A stretch of 64,000 bases of DNA from an uncultured Clostridia bacterium (GTDB taxonomy: Bacteria > Bacillota > Clostridia > Christensenellales > CAG-138). The notes below the pieces were generated by a model. The model was not told the DNA's origin, ran no database searches, and worked only from the letters and a program-made list of their open reading frames with translations. Positions within the stretch are counted from its first letter, which is position 1; every line of letters begins with the position of its first letter. The translations under genes and the position numbers were made by a program. This document shows positions 3,439 to 63,203 of the stretch, one piece after another. The stretch covers positions 8,945 to 72,944 of the forward strand of contig CALDNN010000196.1 in NCBI GenBank assembly GCA_937915455.1. Direction: 5' to 3'.

Positions 3439-5175
3439 TTATAGCGACAACAGGCGGTCGCCCATGATCTCCTCAGCACTCCACTTAATCAGCGCAAACT
3501 TACCGGCCGCATGTTTATCAATACGATTGAGCCACTCAACTTCGCCTGCTGCTTTTGCCGCCAGCATGGGGTTGGTTGTGTTCGTGCCGTAAAGGGACTG
3601 ATTGACAACCCACCATTTAGCAGCGATGCCCGCCCGTTTTAGATCATCCTCCAAACGCAGCGCCTCATAAACGGGAGTCGCTTCGGGCAGGGTCACAATA
3701 ATGACTTCGGTTTCTTTGGATTTCAGCCGGGGCAACAACCTCTTTACCGCTTCGGGAATTTCACCCTTGGTACGTTGGATTTCGTGGTTATAGCTTTGTG
3801 TGGATTCTAGTAAGAGAAGGGTGTGACCGGTGGGCGCGGTATCGATTACCACCACTTGATCATCCGCTTTTTCCACAACATCTGCAAACGCCCGGAATAC
3901 GGCGATCTCCTGGGTGCAGGGGGAGCGTAGATCTTCCTCCACATAGGCGATGTCCTCGTTGCTCATGCCGGATGCGCGGGCTTTCGATAGCACCTCGAAT
4001 TGATATTTTTCCAACTCCTCGGCCTCGTCGATATGGCTCATGGAAACACCGCTGCTCTCGTCCAGCACGAATTTTAGGTGTGCAGCAGGGTCGGTGGTGG
4101 TGAGATGGACTCTCTTTCCTCGATTCGCAAGTCCAAGCGCGATAGCGGCAGCCACGGTAGTCTTACCTACGCCGCCCTTGCCCATGGTGAAAATGACGCG
4201 CTTTCCCTCTGCGGCCAGTTCGTCTATCACATCGTTCAGCACGGGAATATGCGTAGCGTGCAGCGTTTGCGCATGGGCGGTCACGCGGTCGGCATGCAGC
4301 AGGGCGCGCACGTTTTCAAGACCTGTGACATTATAGGCTCGAAGTGGAACCATATAGCGAGGAAATGATCGCAGGCCCTCCGGCAGCGCGATAAAGGCTG
4401 CTTGCTGCTTTTCATACAGGCTAAGTGATAAGGCATCGCTGTGTTCCATGAGCATGCCGTTGATGACTAACGTTTGATTGTTTACGCCCAATGCGGAAAG
4501 CTCGTTGGAAGCCCGTTCCGCCTCCTTGAACGGTGCGATTTCGGGACGAGTAACGAGGATCAACGTGGTCAGGTTGCCGTCTGCCAGTGTTTCCACGGCC
4601 TGCTTGTAGATGGCTTTCTTGCTCTCCAAGCCTGAAAGCTGGCCCAAGCAAGACGCCCCATGTGTGCTTTCGCTTATGAAATTGCTCCACGCGGAGGGAA
4701 GTTGAAGCATCCGCAGGGTATGGCCTGTGGGCGCAGTATCAAAAATAATATGGTCGTATTCCTGCTGTATCTTATCGTCGGTAATGAAGCTGGAAAACTC
4801 ATTGAACGCCGCGATTTCGACTGTGCAGGAGCCGGAAAGCTGTTCCTCCATATTAGCGATCACGGACGCGGGTAATCTGCCACGGTAAGGCGCGATCACG
4901 CTTTCCCGGTACTCGGCGGCGGCTTGTATGGGGTCTAGGTTTGCTACCGTCAAATTCGGTACGCCTGGGATGGGTGTTCCTCTGTTGGTTAATTCCATCG
5001 AAAAAACATCCTGTAAATTGGAAGCGGGGTCGGTGCTGATAAGCAACACTTTTTTTCCGCTGTCCGCCAGCGTCACGGCTGTGGCGCAGGCGATGCTGGT
5101 TTTGCCAACGCCGCCTTTGCCGGTATAGAAAAGGTATTTTGTCAGGTTGATATTGTTGGGATCGAATACCTTCAT
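3439..5175 (-). CDS. arsA: Arsenite-stimulated ATPase ArsA (two fused halves)
   Basis: 578 aa. Two P-loops (GKGGVGKTS, GKGGVGKTT) and two DTAPTGHT signal-transduction motifs. Confidence 0.95.
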   Translation of the reverse strand: MKVFDPNNINLTKYLFYTGKGGVGKTSIACATAVTLADSGKKVLLISTDPASNLQDVFSMELTNRGTPIPGVPNLTVANLDPIQAAAEYRESVIAPYRGRLPASVIANMEEQLSGSCTVEIAAFNEFSSFITDDKIQQEYDHIIFDTAPTGHTLRMLQLPSAWSNFISESTHGASCLGQLSGLESKKAIYKQAVETLADGNLTTLILVTRPEIAPFKEAERASNELSALGVNNQTLVINGMLMEHSDALSLSLYEKQQAAFIALPEGLRSFPRYMVPLRAYNVTGLENVRALLHADRVTAHAQTLHATHIPVLNDVIDELAAEGKRVIFTMGKGGVGKTTVAAAIALGLANRGKRVHLTTTDPAAHLKFVLDESSGVSMSHIDEAEELEKYQFEVLSKARASGMSNEDIAYVEEDLRSPCTQEIAVFRAFADVVEKADDQVVVIDTAPTGHTLLLLESTQSYNHEIQRTKGEIPEAVKRLLPRLKSKETEVIIVTLPEATPVYEALRLEDDLKRAGIAAKWWVVNQSLYGTNTTNPMLAAKAAGEVEWLNRIDKHAAGKFALIKWSAEEIMGDRLLSL

Positions 5176-42515: not shown

Positions 42516-43046
42516 TCAATATTTCGGCTCGATGAGGCCATAGTTGCCGTCCTTGCGAAGGTACAGGACGTTTACTGTGCCATCCTCGGCGTTTTCGAAT
42601 ACGTAGAAGGAGTGACCCAAGAGTTCCATTTGCAGGATGGCCTCCTCTACATCCATGGGCTTAATGGAGAAGCGCTTTACGCGCACTACCTGCCTGGGCT
42701 CGTCGTCGAAATCTTCCAGCGGGGCGTACACAGGCTCGGCCTTGAAGGCGCCCTGGCGCAGGTTCTTTTCGAGCTTGGTGCGGTGCTTGACGATCTGGTG
42801 CTCAAGCTTGGCCAGCACGCTGTCCACAGAGGCGTACATATCGCCGGAAGCGACCTCGCCGCGAATGATGCCGCCCACATAGGGGATGGTAACCTCGACG
42901 ATGTGGCGGTTGCGCTCTACCGCCAGCGTCACATGTGCTTCGGTGCCCTCGGGGAAATACTTGTCGAGCTTGGATACCTTTTTGGTTACGAGATCCTCCA
43001 GGTATTCCGATACCTCAATGTTTTTGCCCGTAATGATAATTCGCAT
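42516..43046 (-). CDS. hpf: Ribosome hibernation-promoting factor, long form
   Basis: 176 aa. Starts MRIIITGKNIEVSEYLEDLVTKKVSKLDKYF, followed by the C-terminal dimerisation domain. Confidence 0.95.
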   Translation of the reverse strand: MRIIITGKNIEVSEYLEDLVTKKVSKLDKYFPEGTEAHVTLAVERNRHIVEVTIPYVGGIIRGEVASGDMYASVDSVLAKLEHQIVKHRTKLEKNLRQGAFKAEPVYAPLEDFDDEPRQVVRVKRFSIKPMDVEEAILQMELLGHSFYVFENAEDGTVNVLYLRKDGNYGLIEPKY

Positions 43047-43376: not shown

Positions 43377-45941
43377 TTATGGCAGGATTGGGCCCAATAA
43401 CATGTAAGCGATAAAGCTAATCACATAGGCCACGGCCATCTGCCAAAACACGGCGAAGGCCGTCCACTTGCCGCTTTGCAGCTCCCGATGCATGGTGGAG
43501 ACGGCGGCGGCGCAGGGCACATACAACAGCACGAAGATGAGGAAGGCATAGGCGGAGCGGGGGGTGAAGGTACCTGAGAGGGCCGTGGCTACAGCGCCGC
43601 TTTCCGCCGATAGGGAGAAGCCGTAAAACATAGCTAGGCTGGAGACCACCGCTTCCTTGGCGATGAGCCCCGTGAGCAGGGATACCGCGGCCTGCCAGGT
43701 GCCGAAGCCCTGGGGCCGGAAGAGAGGCGCGACGAGGCCGCCCAAAATGCCCAGGATGCTTTTTGAGGCATCCTCCACTAATATAAGGCGGGGGTCGAAG
43801 CTTTGCAGGAACCAGAGCACCACGCTCATGGCGAAGATGATGGTGCCCGCCTTTTGCAAAAAGTGGCTCACCCGCTCCCAAACGTGGGTAAACGTATTGC
43901 GGACCGTGGGCACGCGGTAGGGGGGCAGCTCGATCACGAAGGGGGCATCCTCACCCGGGAAAAGGCGCTTTTTGAACAGCAGGCCCGAGAGCACGCCCAG
44001 CAGGATGCCGATGGCGTAGAGCGAAAAGATCACCAGCGTGCGCCCCTTGGCGAAGAAGGCCCCGGCGATGAGGCCGTAGACCGGCAGCTTGGCCGAGCAG
44101 CTCATAAAGGGCAGCAACAGGATGGTCATGCGCTTGTCTTTTTCATTATCCATGGTGCGCGCGCCCATGGCCGCGGGCACGGTGCAGCCAAAGCCCATTA
44201 ACAGGGGGATGAAGCTCTTGCCGGAAAGGCCGAAGCGGCGCATGGGCTTATCCATGATAAAGGCGATGCGGCTCATGTAGCCGCTATCTTCCAGCAGGGA
44301 GAGGCAGAAGAAGAGAATGGCGATCTGCGGCAGGAAGGTGAGCACGCCGCCCACGCCGGTGAGGATACCGTCGCAAACGAGGCCCGTAAGCCAGGCGAAC
44401 GCGCCGGAGGCAGTCATGGCCTCGCGTACATAGGGGATGACAAAGGAGCCGAGGGCCACGCTTACCGAGTCCGCAAGGAAAGCCCCGAGGCTGGAAAAGG
44501 TGAGGCCGAATATCAGCATCATGATGCCGAAGAAGAGGGGCAGAGCCAGGAACTTGTGGGTAAGCAGGGCGTCGATGCGGTTGGATCTGCTGGCCTCTCC
44601 CTGCTTGCGCGCCCGCTTGAGGGCGAGGGCGCACACCCGGCCCACGTAGCGGTAGCGGCTATCCGCCACCATGCTCTCGTTATCGCCCAGGGGACTGGCC
44701 GCGGCGTATTCTGCCGCCACGGCCTCTATCTGCCGGGCCACCTCCGGCGGCAGGCCCAGGCTATCCTTGATGAGCTCGTCGCCCTCCAGCAGCTTAATCT
44801 GTGTCCAATGCAGCGGCAGGCCCGCGGCCTTGGCGTAGCTTTCGACCAGCTTGCCGATGCGGTGGTGGGCCATGTGGGTGAAATCGTCGTAAAGGTCGTC
44901 CGGCTCTATGTTGAAGCCCTCGTGGAATTGGGTGTGAATGGCGTGGATCAGCTTTTGCGCCTGGGCCACCAGCTCGTCCACCCCCATGCCCGTGCGGGCG
45001 GAGATGGGGATTACGGGCACGCCCAGCTCCAAGGAAAGCCGATTTACGTCGATGCGATCGCCACTCTTCTGCACCTCGTCCATCATATTGAGGGCCACGA
45101 TCATGGGGTGCTCCAGCTCCATCAGCTGCACGGTGAGGTAAAGGTTGCGCTCGAGATTGGTGCCATCCACGATGTTGATAATGGCGTCCGGTTTTTCATC
45201 CACAATGAAGCGCCTGGCGATGATCTCTTCCATGGAATGGGGGGAGAGCGAATAGATGCCCGGCAGATCCACCAGCGTCATATCATGGCCGTGGGTGCAT
45301 ATGGCGTTCTTACCCACCGCGCCCCGGTTGGGCTGCTTGACCCGGCCCTCTTTTTTTTCTACCGTTACGCCGGGCCAGTTGCCCACGTATTCGTGGCCGC
45401 CGGTCATGGCGTTGAACAGGGTGGTTTTGCCGCAGTTGGGGTTGCCCACCAGGGCCAGCTTCACGGGTTGGTTCTCCGCGCCGGGGTCGATTTTATGCGA
45501 GCAAACGGCGCATTCGTCCGCCTCACCTGCGCGAGAGCAGGTGCTGGGAGTGCTGGTGAATGCCTCGGTCAGCAGGGCGGCCCGGCGGTGGCCCTCGGCA
45601 TCGGTATCCCGCTTGTGGCCGAGCTGTGAGCGGGAGCTCCGCTCGTATTCGGCCAGGGTTTGACGTTGCTGTTTTTGCAGGGCATCCTTTTCGCCGCCTT
45701 TCATCAGGGTGATCTGCAGGGCATCCTCTCGCCTAAGGGAAAGGGAATAGCCCCGCAGGGCGATCTCGATGGGGTCGCCCATGGGGGCCACCTTAACCAC
45801 CGTTACCTCTGTGCCGGGGGTGATGCCCATGTCCACGATGCGGCGGCGCACGCGCTTATCCGCCGTATTTACGCCGTATATATGGCCGCTTTGCCCAGGC
45901 AAGAGTTCACCCAGGGATTTACGCCCGCCTTTGTCATTCAT
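43377..45941 (-). CDS. feoB: Ferrous iron transporter, FeoA-FeoB fusion
   Basis: 854 aa. N-terminal FeoA SH3-like domain (GQSGHIYGVN...GDPIEIALRG), a ~100-aa linker with CSRAGEADECAVCSH, the G-domain GNPNCGKTTLFN, and a polytopic C-terminus. Confidence 0.9.
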   Translation of the reverse strand: MNDKGGRKSLGELLPGQSGHIYGVNTADKRVRRRIVDMGITPGTEVTVVKVAPMGDPIEIALRGYSLSLRREDALQITLMKGGEKDALQKQQRQTLAEYERSSRSQLGHKRDTDAEGHRRAALLTEAFTSTPSTCSRAGEADECAVCSHKIDPGAENQPVKLALVGNPNCGKTTLFNAMTGGHEYVGNWPGVTVEKKEGRVKQPNRGAVGKNAICTHGHDMTLVDLPGIYSLSPHSMEEIIARRFIVDEKPDAIINIVDGTNLERNLYLTVQLMELEHPMIVALNMMDEVQKSGDRIDVNRLSLELGVPVIPISARTGMGVDELVAQAQKLIHAIHTQFHEGFNIEPDDLYDDFTHMAHHRIGKLVESYAKAAGLPLHWTQIKLLEGDELIKDSLGLPPEVARQIEAVAAEYAAASPLGDNESMVADSRYRYVGRVCALALKRARKQGEASRSNRIDALLTHKFLALPLFFGIMMLIFGLTFSSLGAFLADSVSVALGSFVIPYVREAMTASGAFAWLTGLVCDGILTGVGGVLTFLPQIAILFFCLSLLEDSGYMSRIAFIMDKPMRRFGLSGKSFIPLLMGFGCTVPAAMGARTMDNEKDKRMTILLLPFMSCSAKLPVYGLIAGAFFAKGRTLVIFSLYAIGILLGVLSGLLFKKRLFPGEDAPFVIELPPYRVPTVRNTFTHVWERVSHFLQKAGTIIFAMSVVLWFLQSFDPRLILVEDASKSILGILGGLVAPLFRPQGFGTWQAAVSLLTGLIAKEAVVSSLAMFYGFSLSAESGAVATALSGTFTPRSAYAFLIFVLLYVPCAAAVSTMHRELQSGKWTAFAVFWQMAVAYVISFIAYMLLGPILP

Positions 45942-46110: not shown

Positions 46111-46671
46111 ATGCTGGAAGTTTATAAACAGGCCCAAGCGGCCGTGGCGGAGCTGATGGCCTCCGCGGATAATCTCAAAGCCGGGGATATGCTGGTCGTG
46201 GGCTGTTCCACCAGCGAGATCTGCGGCAAGCGTATCGGCACCGGCTCCTCACAAGAGGCGGCCAAGGCCGTGATGGATGCTATATTGCCTGTGGCCAAGG
46301 CCCGGGGGCTGTATCTGTGCGTGCAATGCTGCGAGCACCTCAACCGCTGCTTGGTCGCGGAGCGTGCCTGCATGGAGCGATATGACCTACAGCAGGTGTG
46401 GGTGCGGCCCCAGCTGCACGCGGGCGGCGCGTTTGCCATGGAGGCCGTGAAGCGGTTGGACGAGCCTGTGATGGTGGAAGACCTTCGGGGCAAGGCATCG
46501 GCGGGCCTGGATATCGGCGGCACGCTAATCGGCATGCATCTGCACCCGGTGGTGGTGCCCATCCACGCAAACACGCGCAAGATCGGCGAAGCCAACCTCG
46601 TGATGGCCCGCACGCGGCCCAAATACGTGGGCGGCCCTCGCGCGATTTATGACGAAATTACACCACATTGA
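46111..46671 (+). CDS. TIGR01440/UPF0340 (YwlG-like) family protein
   Basis: 186 aa. Contains LVVGCSTSEICGKRIG, QCCEHLNRCLV and DIGGTLIGMHL, colinear with B. subtilis YwlG as I recall it. Confidence 0.8.
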   Translation: MLEVYKQAQAAVAELMASADNLKAGDMLVVGCSTSEICGKRIGTGSSQEAAKAVMDAILPVAKARGLYLCVQCCEHLNRCLVAERACMERYDLQQVWVRPQLHAGGAFAMEAVKRLDEPVMVEDLRGKASAGLDIGGTLIGMHLHPVVVPIHANTRKIGEANLVMARTRPKYVGGPRAIYDEITPH

Positions 46672-46779
46672 TGCGTTTTAGCTCGAATTGCAGGAAAAGA
46701 AGGGCGAACTTGCACGAAAGAACATAATCTAGAAAAATATTTGTTGTGTTTTTTATTACAATCGGTTATAATACACTTT

Positions 46780-47010
46780 AGGTTGTATGGGTTTTCGGGC
46801 TGTGGTTGCAAATCGATGCCAGTCGCAGGCGAAACGATCCACATAAGCGGGCAAAGCCCGTGAGCATGGTGCGGCTTAGATGTAAGTCCGCCCGTGGCCA
46901 TTGACCACGAGAGGAGCAGTAGTGGGGGGCATAATGCCTAGTAGCGAACCTCCCGGGCGGCGAGTGTGGGGTCAAAGACCAGGTCAGCCGAAAGGCCGGC
47001 AACCAGAAAA
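46780..47010 (+). ncRNA. Candidate structured RNA / long 5' leader upstream of the zinc-ribbon gene (class unassigned)
   Basis: TATAAT at 46767..46772. Hairpins CGGGC-AAA-GCCCG (46848..46860), GTGG-CCATTGA-CCAC (46894..46908) and GGCAT-AA-TGCC (46928..46938). A long-range 7-bp pairing CCGCCCG (46888..46894) / CGGGCGG (46954..46960) is stacked on GAGG/CCTC. No ORF. Confidence 0.4.
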
Positions 47011-47036
47011 ATTTTTTACAAGGGGATTTTTACACA

Positions 47037-47306
47037 ATGTTCGAAGACAAGACTTTGGTATGCAAGGATTGCGGCGCTGAGTTCGTTTTTACCGCTGGCG
47101 AGCAGGAATTCTACGCTGAGAAGGGTTTCCAGAACGAGCCCATCCGCTGCAAGGCGTGCAGGAACAACCGTAAATCCCAGCGCAGCGGTGAGCGCGAGAT
47201 GTACGATGCCGTTTGCGCCGAGTGCGGTGCTCCCACCAAGATCCCGTTCGTTCCTAAGAACGACCGCCCGATCTATTGCAGCGCTTGCTTCCAGAACCAC
47301 CGTTAA
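47037..47306 (+). CDS. Zinc-ribbon protein with two CxxC...CxxC units (CxxC-x17-CxxC family)
   Basis: 89 aa. First unit CKDCGAEF...CKACR, second unit CAECGAPT...CSACF. Confidence 0.8.
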   Translation: MFEDKTLVCKDCGAEFVFTAGEQEFYAEKGFQNEPIRCKACRNNRKSQRSGEREMYDAVCAECGAPTKIPFVPKNDRPIYCSACFQNHR

Positions 47307-47392
47307 CCGTTCTGACTATCTACGAGCAAAGGCTTCCTAATCCCCTTTTTGCCGCGTTGCGGAAAAATTCGGTGCATTAGTAAAAGCAAGAA

Positions 47393-47418
47393 GGCCCCAT
47401 GCACACGGGGCCTTTTTT
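47393..47418 (+). terminator. Terminator of the zinc-ribbon gene
   Basis: GGCCCC ... GGGGCC stem followed by TTTTTT. Confidence 0.8.
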
Positions 47419-47464
47419 GTTTGCCGCAAACGTTACATTATCACTTTTGGATATTGCATTAAGA

Positions 47465-47512
47465 ACACAAAATATATATACTATTCACACGGCATGATAC
47501 AATATGTTGTGT
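47465..47512 (+). promoter_or_regulatory. Tandem NrdR boxes upstream of nrdD
   Basis: Box 2 ATACAATATGTTGTGT (47497..47512) matches the acaCwAtATaTwGtgt palindrome at 14/16 positions. Box 1 ACACAAAATATATATA (47465..47480) is a half-match. The starts are 32 bp apart, as is typical for NrdR operators. Confidence 0.6.
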
Positions 47513-47551: not shown

Positions 47552-49855
47552 ATGATAGATGTCATCAAAAAACGTGATGGGCGGATCACGCCCTTTGATA
47601 TGCAAAAGATCACCACGGCCATTCAAAAGGCCTTCGACGCCACGGGCGTAAGCGCCAGCGGAGCGGAAGCCCTGGCGCAGCAGGTGGTGCAGCGCCTGGA
47701 GGAGGCGGGGGTGGAGCAGCCCGGGGTGGAGCAGATACAGGATTGCGTGGAGCGGGTGCTGCTGGATAACGGCCACGTGCGCACGGCCAAGGCCTATATC
47801 CTCTACCGCGCGGAGCGCAGCCGCGTACGTCAGGCCAATACCCGCCTGATGAAGATATATGAGGATATCACCTATTCCGACGCCAGCGACAGCGACATCA
47901 AGCGGGAGAACGCCAACATCGACGGCAACACCGCCATGGGCGCAATGCTCAAATATGGCAGCGAGGGCGCCAAGCAGTTCAATGAGCTCTACGTTCTCAA
48001 CCCCGAGCACGCCCGGGCTCACCGCGAGGGCGATATCCACATCCACGACCTGGATTTTTATACCCTCACCACCACCTGCTGCCAGATCGACCTGCTCACA
48101 CTCTTTAAGGGCGGCTTTTCCACAGGCCATGGCGTGCTGCGTGAGCCAATGCATATCACCAGCTATGCGGCCCTAGCCTGCATCGCCATCCAGTCGAATC
48201 AAAACGATCAGCACGGCGGCCAAAGCATCGTCAATTTCGATTACGGCCTGGCCCCCGGCGTTGCCAAGACATATGTCCGCACTTACCGCCAGATGCTTGG
48301 CCGCAGCCTCGAGCTGCTGCTCGACGAGCCGCAGGGTGTGATCGACGCGGTGAACGCCGCGCTGGCGGCCGAGAATCTGGAACCCCTGCTGGATGACGGT
48401 AACGGCTACCTGGCCCGCGAGCGAGCGCTCTATCTCGAGGCGGGCATAGAAGAGGCCCCCTTTGCCAAGGCCCAGGCCTTTGCCAGGGAGAAAGCCATGC
48501 AGGATACCGACAGGGAGACCTACAAGGCAATGGTGGCATTGGTACATAACCTCAACACCATGCACTCCCGCGCGGGGGCGCAGACCCCTTTTTCCAGCAT
48601 CAACTACGGCATGGATACCAGCGCAGAGGGCCGCATGGTGATGAAAAACATGCTGCTGGCCACCGAGGCGGGGCTGGGCCATGGCGAAACGCCGATTTTC
48701 CCCATCCAGATTTTCCGGGTAAAAGAGGGGATCAACTACAACCCCGGCGAGCCGAATTACGACCTTTTTCGCCTTGCCTGCCGCTGCAGCGCCAAGCGCT
48801 TGTTCCCCAATTTTTCCTTTATCGACGCGCCCTTCAATCTGCCTTACTATAAGCCCGGCCATTACGAGACCGAGGTAGGCTATATGGGCTGCCGCACCCG
48901 TGTAATGGCCAATGCGTACGACCCGAGCAACGAGATCGCGCCGCGCCGGGGCAATTTGAGCTTCACCACCATCAACCTGCCCCGCATCGCCATCCTCTCC
49001 GGCGGGAACGCGGAATGGTTCTTCGAAGAGCTCGACCGCAAGATCGACCTGTGCATCGAGCAGCTTTTGGAGCGCTTCGCCATCCAATGCAAAAAGAAGG
49101 TGTGCAACTTCCCCTTTCTCATGGGGGAAGGCTGCTGGCTGGACAGCGAAAACCTGCATTGGAACGACGAGATCGGCGAGGTGCTCAAGCACGGCACCCT
49201 GTCCGTGGGCTTCATCGGCCTGGCGGAAACGCTCAAGGCGCTGGTGGGCGAGCATCACGGCCAAAGTGAAAAAGCCCAGAATCTGGGCCTCGAAATCATC
49301 TCCCACATGCGGCGCAGGCTGGATGACGAATCGAAAAAGCGCAAGCTCAACTTTACCCTGCTGGCCACCCCGGCGGAGGGCCTTTCCGGCCGCTTCGTCA
49401 AGCTGGATAAAAAGCGCTTCGGTGTGATCGAGGGCGTTACGGATCGGGAGTATTATACCAACAGCTTCCACATCCCGGTCTATTTCCCCATCGCCGCCTT
49501 TGATAAGATCCGCCTGGAAGCCCCCTACCATGCCCTCACCAACGCGGGGCATATCAGCTATGTGGAGCTGGATGGCGACACGGCCCAGAACCTCGACGCT
49601 TTCGAGAGCATCGTGCGCTGCATGAAGGAGGCGGGCATCGGCTACGGCTCCATCAACCACCCGGTGGATCGGGATGGGGTTTGCGGCTACAATGGCATCA
49701 TCGGCGACGTTTGCCCCAAGTGCGGCCGCACAGAGCACGGCGGGCCGAAATTCCAACGCATCCGGCGCATCACAGGTTATCTCGTGGGCACCATGGATAA
49801 ATGGAACAACGCCAAGCGGGCCGAGGAGGCCGATCGGGTAAGTCACCAATTGTAA
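47552..49855 (+). CDS. nrdD: Anaerobic ribonucleoside-triphosphate reductase (class III)
   Basis: 767 aa. N-terminal ATP-cone, a C-terminal Zn site CGYNGIIGDVCPKCG, and the glycyl-radical motif RRITGYLVG. Confidence 0.95.
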   Translation: MIDVIKKRDGRITPFDMQKITTAIQKAFDATGVSASGAEALAQQVVQRLEEAGVEQPGVEQIQDCVERVLLDNGHVRTAKAYILYRAERSRVRQANTRLMKIYEDITYSDASDSDIKRENANIDGNTAMGAMLKYGSEGAKQFNELYVLNPEHARAHREGDIHIHDLDFYTLTTTCCQIDLLTLFKGGFSTGHGVLREPMHITSYAALACIAIQSNQNDQHGGQSIVNFDYGLAPGVAKTYVRTYRQMLGRSLELLLDEPQGVIDAVNAALAAENLEPLLDDGNGYLARERALYLEAGIEEAPFAKAQAFAREKAMQDTDRETYKAMVALVHNLNTMHSRAGAQTPFSSINYGMDTSAEGRMVMKNMLLATEAGLGHGETPIFPIQIFRVKEGINYNPGEPNYDLFRLACRCSAKRLFPNFSFIDAPFNLPYYKPGHYETEVGYMGCRTRVMANAYDPSNEIAPRRGNLSFTTINLPRIAILSGGNAEWFFEELDRKIDLCIEQLLERFAIQCKKKVCNFPFLMGEGCWLDSENLHWNDEIGEVLKHGTLSVGFIGLAETLKALVGEHHGQSEKAQNLGLEIISHMRRRLDDESKKRKLNFTLLATPAEGLSGRFVKLDKKRFGVIEGVTDREYYTNSFHIPVYFPIAAFDKIRLEAPYHALTNAGHISYVELDGDTAQNLDAFESIVRCMKEAGIGYGSINHPVDRDGVCGYNGIIGDVCPKCGRTEHGGPKFQRIRRITGYLVGTMDKWNNAKRAEEADRVSHQL

Positions 49856-49880: not shown

Positions 49881-50390
49881 ATGAAAATACGACTTTATGG
49901 GGTGGTTCGGGATTCCATTGTGGATGGCCCCGGCCTGCGTACGGCTGTTTTCGTGCAGGGCTGCTCCCACCATTGCCCCGGCTGCCACAACCCCGCTTCC
50001 CACGACCCGGCCGCCGGCTACGAGACCGATACGGAGGATATCCTGGCCGCCATGGCTGCAAATCCCCTCTGCACCGGCCTTACCCTCTCGGGTGGTGAGC
50101 CTTTCGAGCAGCCCGGCCCCTGCCTTGAATTGGCCAGGGGCGCACGCGCACTCGGTAAAAACGTGTGGGCCTATTCGGGCTATACGCTGGAAGAATTACG
50201 GGCCATGGAGAATGAAGATGTACGAGCCCTGCTCGATGAACTCGATGTGCTGGTGGACGGCCCCTTTTTGCTGGATCGGCGCTCGCTCGATTTGAAATTT
50301 CGCGGTAGCGCCAACCAGCGCCTGATCGATATGAAAAAATCCGCGCTCGGAGCCATCGTGCTCTGGGAGGATCCCTGGGAAAAATTATAG
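49881..50390 (+). CDS. nrdG: Anaerobic ribonucleotide reductase activating protein (radical SAM)
   Basis: 169 aa. Contains DGPGLRTAVFVQGCSHHCPGCHNP. Confidence 0.9.
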   Translation: MKIRLYGVVRDSIVDGPGLRTAVFVQGCSHHCPGCHNPASHDPAAGYETDTEDILAAMAANPLCTGLTLSGGEPFEQPGPCLELARGARALGKNVWAYSGYTLEELRAMENEDVRALLDELDVLVDGPFLLDRRSLDLKFRGSANQRLIDMKKSALGAIVLWEDPWEKL

Positions 50391-63120: not shown

Positions 63121-63203
63121 GCGGTCGTGGCGGAACAGGCAGACGCGTACGTTTGAGGGGCGTATGGGAGACCGTATGGGTTCAAGTCCCATCGACCGCA
63201 CCA
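63121..63203 (+). tRNA. tRNA-Leu (anticodon GAG), CCA encoded
   Basis: Hand-folded cloverleaf. Acceptor stem GCGGTCG/CGACCGC. D-loop with GG. Anticodon stem TACGT/GCGTA with loop TTGAGGG. 11-nt extra arm. T-arm ATGGG-TTCAAGT-CCCAT. Discriminator A followed by CCA. Confidence 0.9.

Follow-up and report, generated by a model that had tools for sequence, protein, structure and literature searches.

The stretch of DNA analysed here (the window) covers 64,000 nucleotides (nt) of an uncultured Clostridia bacterium (GCA_937915455.1, contig CALDNN010000196.1), and our subject is the interval on its forward strand between a DUF436/TIGR01440 gene (46111-46671) and a gene for a small zinc-finger (zf) protein (47037-47306), which is A/T-rich at both ends and has ~60% G+C in its middle. 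A preliminary description made from the letters alone had seen a structured non-coding region here and likened it, tentatively, to the raiA-motif class of non-coding RNAs (ncRNAs). We find that the interval holds a raiA-motif RNA (ModT) directly followed by the zf gene on the same strand, that this adjacency is conserved among relatives and that zf genes free of raiA tend to follow a gene for a SigH-type sigma factor instead. While the RNA itself is an ordinary new raiA/ModT gene in a family already known, the conserved raiA-zf unit and its alternation with a sigH-zf arrangement are new.

The raiA-motif RNA and its fold

Run over the entire window with Rfam 15 and its gathering thresholds, cmscan returned two matches, a tRNA at 63121 and raiA (RF03072) at 46790-46996 (+), the latter spanning model positions 1-209 of 209 with 188 bits (gathering score 101.3; E = 5e-48) and being the single raiA copy within the 64 kb. 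This full-length match was reproduced in E-value mode (46600-47450, E <= 1), and in the same region neither the signal recognition particle (SRP) RNA nor 6S RNA matched at the gathering score or at E <= 1. Other Rfam families gave only two sub-threshold matches (47329-47424) at that limit, which merely reflect a terminator hairpin (see below). To our minds it is practically certain that 46790-46996 (+) is a member of the raiA-motif/ModT family, and the host, being a member of the Bacillota, comes from one of the two phyla (Bacillota, Actinomycetota) expected for such an RNA.

Placed by means of the Rfam alignment and the nomenclature of a cryo-electron microscopy (cryo-EM) study (PMC12968392), all named raiA elements can be located, namely P1a/b/c, P3a/b, P4, PK1, PK2, the linker, P5, P6, P7 and P8 with its E-loop:

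46790..46996, +, raiA-motif (ModT) ncRNA, RF03072, subtype without P2 (cmscan; covariation in 49 relatives)
46790-46798 with 46988-46996, +, P1a (Rfam alignment, PMC12968392 nomenclature)
46799, +, bulge between P1a and P1b, a single G (Rfam alignment)
46800-46802 with 46985-46987, +, P1b, CUG/CAG (Rfam alignment)
46803-46807 with 46977-46981, +, P1c (Rfam alignment)
46982..46984, +, GGU bulge between P1c and P1b, invariant in 49/49 sequences and family-defining according to PMC12968392
no coordinates, +, GCAA junction, GNRA-like (element placement)
46813..46837, +, P3 hairpin, with P3a UCG/CGA (46813-46815 with 46835-46837) and an AU/GAAA internal loop
46818-46820 with 46828-46830, +, P3b, GCC/GGC, apical loop AGUCGCA
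46822-46827 (P3b loop) with 46870-46875 (P5-P6 linker), +, pseudoknot PK1, GUCGCA/UGCGGC
46839-46843 with 46965-46969, +, P4, CCACA/UGUGG, an invariant helix consistent with the model
46847..46861, +, P5 hairpin, GCGGGC-AAA-GCCCGU (covariation)
46867-46868 with 46973-46974, +, PK2, UG/CA (mapped from PMC12968392)
46876..46885, +, single-stranded linker UUAGAUGUAA between PK1 and P6, fitting the family's UUAGA(N)GUAA
46888..46960, +, P6-P7-P8 domain in its multistem version, with P6 at 46888-46892 with 46956-46960
46893-46897 with 46905-46909, +, P7 (Rfam alignment)
46913-46916 with 46950-46953, +, base of P8, with an AGUA/GAA E-loop and a tip helix (46928-46930 with 46936-46938)

P2 is absent, which places the RNA in the C. 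acetobutylicum-like subtype.

In support of this fold, 49 raiA sequences, taken from both genomes and metagenomes, were aligned with MAFFT, a structure-blind procedure, and the named structure was counted on the alignment. Standard pairs fill 90.3% of the cells as against 79.5% after shuffling, and 34 of the 61 pairs have changed on both sides. The resulting covariation score of 0.330 compares with 0.136 in shuffled alignments (0/500 reach 0.330) and with 0.06-0.15 when the partners are slid by 1-3 columns. Compensatory changes occur in P3a, PK1, P5, P6, P7 and the base of P8: a UA pair in P3a is exchanged for CG in 17/48 sequences, PK1 is paired in 100% of cells with double changes in three of its six pairs (AU to GC, for example, in eight sequences) and P5 has double changes in all six pairs; PK2 is paired in 95.8% of cells. 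P1b, P3b and P4 are uninformative in this respect because they are invariant in relatives, and the outer P1a columns run out of register because the window is short of one bulge nucleotide.

Much of what the preliminary description had made of the interval stands after these analyses. Its raiA-like class is borne out by the very cmscan it had named as a check, with raiA far above its gathering score, and its second check, covariation among relatives, gave clear compensatory changes in the 49 sequences. Three perfect local hairpins do exist and correspond to P5 (CGGGC/GCCCG, 46848-46860), P7 (CGTGG/CCACG, 46893-46909) and the tip of P8 (GGC/GCC, 46928-46938), and the size of ~230 nt is roughly right once an extension of P1 (46781-46785 with 47000-47004) is counted. 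The 7-bp long-range helix CCGCCCG (46888-46894)/CGGGCGG (46954-46960) is made of exact complements, but P6 of the family model has 5 bp and the two extra pairs compete with the base of P7; moreover, the helix stacked on P6 is GGAG/CUCC (46913-46916/46950-46953) and not GAGG/CCTC. As for the segment thought to resemble SRP RNA domain IV, ACCAGGTCAG is indeed present at 46978 (+), but no SRP family match goes with it, and it turns out to be a near-invariant raiA segment composed of the P1c 3' strand, the GGU bulge and the P1b 3' strand; the accompanying hedge that the remaining sequence misfits SRP RNA was well placed. That the interval contains no open reading frame (ORF) is, strictly speaking, incorrect, since mechanical ORFs of 59-84 amino acids overlap it, none of them with any support.

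Promoter and the raiA-zf gene unit

Further features go with the RNA and the zf gene:

46744..46749, +, -35-like hexamer TTGTGT, separated from the -10 box by 17 nt (read from the sequence)
46767..46772, +, TATAAT, -10 box of the predicted raiA promoter (conserved in relatives)
46781-46785 with 47000-47004, +, P1 extension beyond the Rfam model, GGUUG with CAACC (RNAduplex of the flanks)
46997..47036, +, 40-nt spacer between RNA and gene, which includes the 3' strand CAACC of the P1 extension, a stretch rich in A/U and a strong ribosome-binding site, AAGGGGA (47020-47026)
47037..47306, +, gene for an 89-amino-acid protein with two CxxC...CxxC zinc fingers, zf_Tbcl + zf_Tbcl_2 (Pfam, NCBIfam)
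47391..47423, +, predicted intrinsic terminator AAGGCCCC-ATGCACAC-GGGGCCUU then UUUUGUUUG (read from the sequence; the scan lists the minus strand only)

The TATAAT box that had been pointed out at 46767-46772 as the region's own -10 element is there, and it is kept at a near-fixed distance from the RNA across relatives. Among 54 related loci it is perfect in 50, and the invariant CUGUGG follows 19-29 nt (mode 23) past its end; TTG at -35 is found in 50/54 and a 17-nt spacer in 44/54. This pattern agrees with C. difficile ModT, which has a sigma-A promoter and one mapped start site (PMC11706538), and in the window transcription most likely starts at ~46780, ~7 nt past TATAAT, from a housekeeping sigma-A-type promoter. 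Together with its extension, P1 forms a predicted duplex of 16 pairs (-23 kcal/mol, RNAduplex) in the window; over 35 loci the flanks reach a median of -20.2, as compared to -11.5 with flanks swapped between loci. Because P1 thereby extends to the predicted start site, the RNA may be expected to run from ~46780 to ~47005 (~225 nt).

How general the raiA-zf arrangement is can be seen from two samples. Scanning one genome per GTDB species for the zf protein yielded the 80 closest zf loci, and a scan of metagenome contigs with the conserved raiA 3' pattern yielded 120 loci, 117 of which are raiA and 105 of which have at least 400 nt downstream. In the genome sample, raiA lies directly upstream of zf on the same strand in 37/80 loci (profile search), or 38/80 with one that a contig end truncates, with 28-62 nt, typically 34-45, between the raiA end and the zf ATG; 14 loci without a profile match are raiA-free by Rfam. 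In the metagenome sample, which is whatever the scan reached first and is biased as to frequency, zf comes directly after raiA in 17 of the 105 raiA loci (16%), another 48 have a same-strand hpf no more than 2.5 kb away and the other 40 have something different; in none of these 105 loci was zf found anywhere but directly downstream of raiA. That the link of the RNA to the zinc-ribbon gene would itself be conserved was unforeseen by the first reading of the sequence.

Across 57 related loci, terminator-like sites are missing from the spacer (0/57) and occur within 200 nt past the zf stop in 31/57; a consensus scan of the window found no promoter in the spacer. In the window, the hairpin AAGGCCCC...GGGGCCUU downstream of zf could terminate transcription in both directions since it has T-runs on both sides. 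Judging by this layout, raiA and zf are likely to be co-transcribed from one promoter. The genes flanking the pair vary and are frequently on the opposite strand: DUF436 is upstream in the 10 closest loci only, nrdD is downstream in L001 only, and when the adjoining genes on both sides were scanned with Pfam, dozens of unrelated families came up, ComFC-like proteins being upstream in three loci and Hpf being downstream in a single one. There being no conserved flanking genes, we rejected the idea that the adjacency is a piece of a larger operon. The closest relative locus belongs to a metagenome-assembled genome of 'Candidatus Pelethousia sp.' (Clostridia), with identities of 99% for zf, 97% for DUF436, 95% for NrdD and 93% for FeoAB, so that the window's source is this species or one very near to it.

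The zf protein matches zf_Tbcl (PF13451) with 93.2 bits (cut-off 24), zf_Tbcl_2 (PF23477) with 72.9 bits (cut-off 27) and the NCBIfam model TIGR04272 (CxxC-x17-CxxC) with 70.3 bits (cut-off 36). It has four CxxC motifs, all eight cysteines of which are invariant in 64 homologues, and belongs to a large family (6286 clusters at E <= 1e-10) in which small archaeal CxxC-x17-CxxC proteins are the only ones shown to bind zinc (PMC12704099). No sequence match was found in the PDB at E <= 1, and a Foldseek search of the PDB with the AlphaFold2 model (mean predicted local distance difference test score, pLDDT, 89; predicted template modelling score, pTM, 0.49) gave nothing better than E = 0.2; the predicted fold conveys only 'two small zinc fingers'. 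The 80 zf loci include no two from one assembly, consistent with a single-copy gene. Copies linked to raiA essentially form one clade (35/38 inside a clade of 38), and we found no residues that separate raiA-linked from unlinked zf proteins.

Several observations on these loci deserve mention in their own right. Some zf-linked raiA RNAs carry insertions of ~80-140 nt between model positions ~104 and ~115 (the P7 region), which brings them to 280-350 nt:

L008 4670-4962; L030 4683-4964; L108; L112; L190; L203 2666-2960: loci with P7-region insertions

Clostridia-type raiA-zf units also stand on contigs filed as Phocaeicola dorei, Alloprevotella sp. and Bacteroidaceae (L026, L031, L032); since reports of raiA are confined to Bacillota and Actinomycetota, these contigs are probably mis-binned. 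In the metagenome loci L081-L200, raiA-hpf distances fall into two groups (<500 nt and ~1100-1440 nt), and in several of these loci hpf begins just 38-100 nt past raiA on the same strand; since hpf can be similarly close, leader-like tight spacing is not unique to zf. Lastly, zf is followed by hpf within 0.2-0.7 kb in L019 (5001-6541), L058 (576-1814) and L030 (5001-5998), with L019 and L058 having no raiA upstream of zf.

The sigH context and a proposed mode of action

Genome loci whose zf gene is free of raiA have a context of their own. Where an upstream gene was detectable (n = 41), it is on the same strand in 39/41 and encodes a Sigma70_r2 + r4_2 protein in 27/41 (Pfam); by tblastn, a SigH-like gene ends just before zf in 29/42 raiA-free loci. 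The SigH equivalog model NF006148 is matched at E <= 1e-55 by 12/41 upstream genes, two upstream genes examined singly score 271 and 301 bits against its cut-off of 208, and the remaining sigma-like upstream genes have SigH as their best model, albeit below cut-off. The zf gene follows 30-150 nt past the SigH or SigH-like gene on the same strand, at ~4200-4950 in each locus, and the genes downstream of it are variable:

L016, L024, L022, L035, L037, L038, L042, L047, L056, L064, L066 and others: sigH-zf loci

The zf gene is, in other words, tightly coupled to either the raiA RNA, as in one clade of Clostridia (38/80 loci), or the gene for a SigH-type sigma factor, as in another clade (29/80).

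The sigma factor that serves the transition phase and early sporulation is SigH. In C. difficile, deletion of ModT lowers expression of the sigma-H regulon, and in C. acetobutylicum a raiA deletion causes a sporulation defect (PMC10861870). It is the raiA-zf pairing, the alternation with sigH-zf and the loss of sigma-H regulon expression in ModT knockouts that make the zf protein a candidate raiA partner. We tentatively raise the option, which is doubtful as yet, that raiA/ModT has a dedicated partner or effector in the zf_Tbcl protein within the sigma-H transition-state pathway, and that raiA might bind or titrate this protein and thereby act on sigma-H or RNA polymerase. Published raiA neighbourhood analyses name no candidate protein partner, and the literature we searched, which did not extend to the gene-neighbourhood supplement of Soares et al., makes no mention of zinc together with the raiA motif or of a zinc-ribbon gene linked to sigH. 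Among structured bacterial RNAs of unsolved biochemical function, raiA ranks with the most widespread and abundant, knockouts and several cryo-EM structures notwithstanding. If true, the proposal would provide the molecular handle that has been lacking for so widespread an RNA; the gene arrangement singles out one 89-amino-acid zinc-finger protein and links raiA to sigma-H.

For the locus as a whole, we consider it likely that 46780-47005 is a raiA/ModT gene whose RNA acts in trans and is co-transcribed with zf and then processed. Transcription would start from the sigma-A-type promoter, with the first bases forming the foot of the closing helix P1, and the RNA would fold into the compact raiA shape with a P3a/P3b-P4-PK1-PK2 core and, at its periphery, the arms P1, P5, P6-P7 and P8, the last with the E-loop. 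Its action in trans is proposed by analogy with two genetically studied species, in which raiA/ModT is abundant, stable and required for cells to sporulate and to pass normally from growth into stationary phase (PMC10861870, PMC11706538). The linker is solvent-exposed and has been proposed as the site bound by KhpA-KhpB (PMC12968392), which bind raiA/ModT RNA with only micromolar affinity in vitro. Reading through the terminator-free 40-nt spacer into zf, transcription would stop at 47391-47423 and give a primary transcript of ~640 nt, in which the RNA domain may well survive because both its ends appear from the anatomy to be buried in P1; the mature RNA would probably be released or stabilised by its paired ends, with cleavage in the A/U-rich spacer. 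Our leading hypothesis on the zf protein is that it would work in one pathway with raiA and sigma-H, possibly with direct binding to the RNA.

Some observations do not sit easily with this picture. The family's GU bulge between P1a and P1b is reduced to a lone G in the window, in the near-identical L001 and in L130, with GU in the other 46 aligned relatives, albeit the G that forms a base triple is retained. The raiA promoter escaped the strict consensus scan because its -35 element is weak (3/6 consensus bases). Unlike a typical raiA RNA, the window's copy does not lie between comFC and hpf but has DUF436 upstream and zf, then nrdD, downstream, though the typical context (comFC upstream in 74%, hpf/raiA gene downstream in 66%) is frequent rather than obligatory. 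No match to comFC or recD2 was found within the 64-kb window, and hpf, the gene that gave the raiA RNA its name and its usual neighbour, lies 3.7 kb upstream on the opposite strand, with feoAB and DUF436 in between. Finally, 38/80 overstates the general frequency of raiA-zf pairs, because these loci were picked by similarity to the window's protein.

The main rival to a trans-acting RNA is a raiA fold that works in cis as a riboswitch-like or protein-binding leader and controls translation or stability of the zf mRNA, for instance in zf autoregulation. The layout is that of a leader, with the same strand, a gap of 28-62 nt and no terminator or promoter in between, and is kept in 38 genome and 17 metagenome loci; such tight spacing, which speaks against our reading, differs from the hundreds of nt that, according to the literature, usually separate raiA from the next ORF; Rfam types RF03072 as 'Cis-reg; riboswitch' and the ModT authors leave room for an origin from an ancient riboswitch. 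Nonetheless we find a cis role distinctly unlikely. Knockouts were complemented in trans in two species (PMC10861870, PMC11706538), no small-molecule binding was found in vitro (PMC5737381) and ~84% of the sampled raiA loci have no zf downstream to be controlled. Nor is an expression platform visible, the spacers of the 57 loci being free of terminator-like sites and the ribosome-binding site having no consistent partner in raiA: in partition-function folding of 35 leaders, a weak test in that it ignores pseudoknots, its partners were heterogeneous, and in P8 the anti-Shine-Dalgarno-like strand CUCC is not conserved but covaries as part of a helix. In another reading raiA and zf would be mere neighbours, the RNA being terminated or processed at the end of P1 and zf being expressed separately, and their adjacency would have no functional meaning. 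In C. difficile the longer of two ModT isoforms is attributed to read-through, so that transcription there is able to end with the core RNA, and the authors speak of two independent termination events; the zf protein lacks residues that would mark raiA linkage, and its predicted fold gives no hint of RNA binding. Yet the raiA-zf pair persists while both its flanks change, often between opposite-strand genes; chance adjacency to a single-copy RNA gene would be expected about once in a few thousand loci as opposed to the 38/80 observed, and the spacer has no room for a promoter, yielded none, and is without terminator-like sites in all 57 loci. Mere neighbourhood is, to our minds, very unlikely.

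This leaves the view that the interval is a GC-rich structured 5' untranslated region, an SRP- or 6S-like RNA or a set of chance hairpins without any defined family. Its one argument is that the lone sequence has an ordinary folding energy (z = -1.12), with 28/200 shuffles folding equally well; this z-score not being distinctive, single-sequence thermodynamics is unusable as functional evidence. It is the covariance-model match (full model, E = 5e-48) together with covariation in relatives that puts the region beyond chance, and with compensatory changes in nine helices and nothing from SRP, 6S or other families at E <= 1, an undefined structure is refuted and retains next to no probability.

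Neighbouring genes and known systems

Apart from the raiA-zf unit, two features of the window bear on the comparison or on the Rfam scan:

42516..43046, -, hpf ('raiA' protein gene, ribosome hibernation factor), 52% tblastn identity to Gehongia Hpf
63121-63203, +, tRNA-Leu (GAG), the only tRNA gene in the window (Rfam scan)

The window's hpf also has 45% tblastn identity to what we take to be the B. subtilis YvyD sequence. Between hpf and DUF436, a single ORF of 854 amino acids (43377-45941, -) has an N-terminal FeoA fused to a complete FeoB (FeoAB). Downstream of zf, ATACAATATGTTGTGT at 47497-47512 (+) fits 14/16 positions of what we take to be the NrdR-box consensus (chance expectation 0.17 per window); nrdD (47552-49855) begins 40 nt downstream of this match, with a likely nrdG (49881-50390) behind it.

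In comparison with raiA/ModT RNAs as described (Weinberg 2017, PMC5737381; Soares 2024, PMC10861870; Lence 2024, PMC11706538; cryo-EM, He 2026, PMC12968392), the window's RNA has the full-length model match, the whole core, the UUAGAnGUAA linker, P6-P7-P8 with the E-loop and a length of ~205-225 nt. It resembles the C. acetobutylicum RNA in lacking P2, and C. difficile ModT in its predicted sigma-A-type promoter and Clostridia host. It departs from the typical family member in that a protein gene begins 40 nt downstream without a terminator, where others are usually hundreds of nt from the next ORF, in the reduction of the GU bulge to G and in a P1 longer by five pairs. With riboswitches and protein-binding leaders it has in common a large conserved fold upstream of a same-strand gene, with the ribosome-binding site ~25 nt past the fold; unlike these, it comes without an expression platform or known ligand, is complemented in trans elsewhere in its family and lacks zf behind most family members. 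6S RNA is a structured, abundant regulator of growth-phase transitions that binds the sigma-A RNA polymerase holoenzyme. The likeness here is one of biology only, with zf linked to raiA in this locus and to the sigma factor gene sigH elsewhere; there is no similarity in sequence or structure, raiA adopting a compact pseudoknotted fold and not an open-promoter mimic, and we know of no report that raiA binds RNA polymerase.

A further comparison is with Gehongia tenuis, a cultured member of the Christensenellaceae (GCA_014384795.1, L203), where as in the window raiA (184 bits) is followed on the same strand, after a 40-nt gap, by a zf_Tbcl gene, 80% identical to the window's. Its raiA RNA, at 295 nt, is longer than the window's owing to an insertion. 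Unlike the window, Gehongia keeps the canonical frame in the order recD2-comFC-raiA RNA-zf-three small genes-hpf, with hpf ~2 kb downstream, and in L201 and L202, whose zf is identical to Gehongia's, secA lies just beyond hpf. Since recD2-comFC is upstream and hpf downstream, the Gehongia zf gene sits within the canonical raiA neighbourhood, and a cultured organism with the same raiA-zf arrangement as the window is available.

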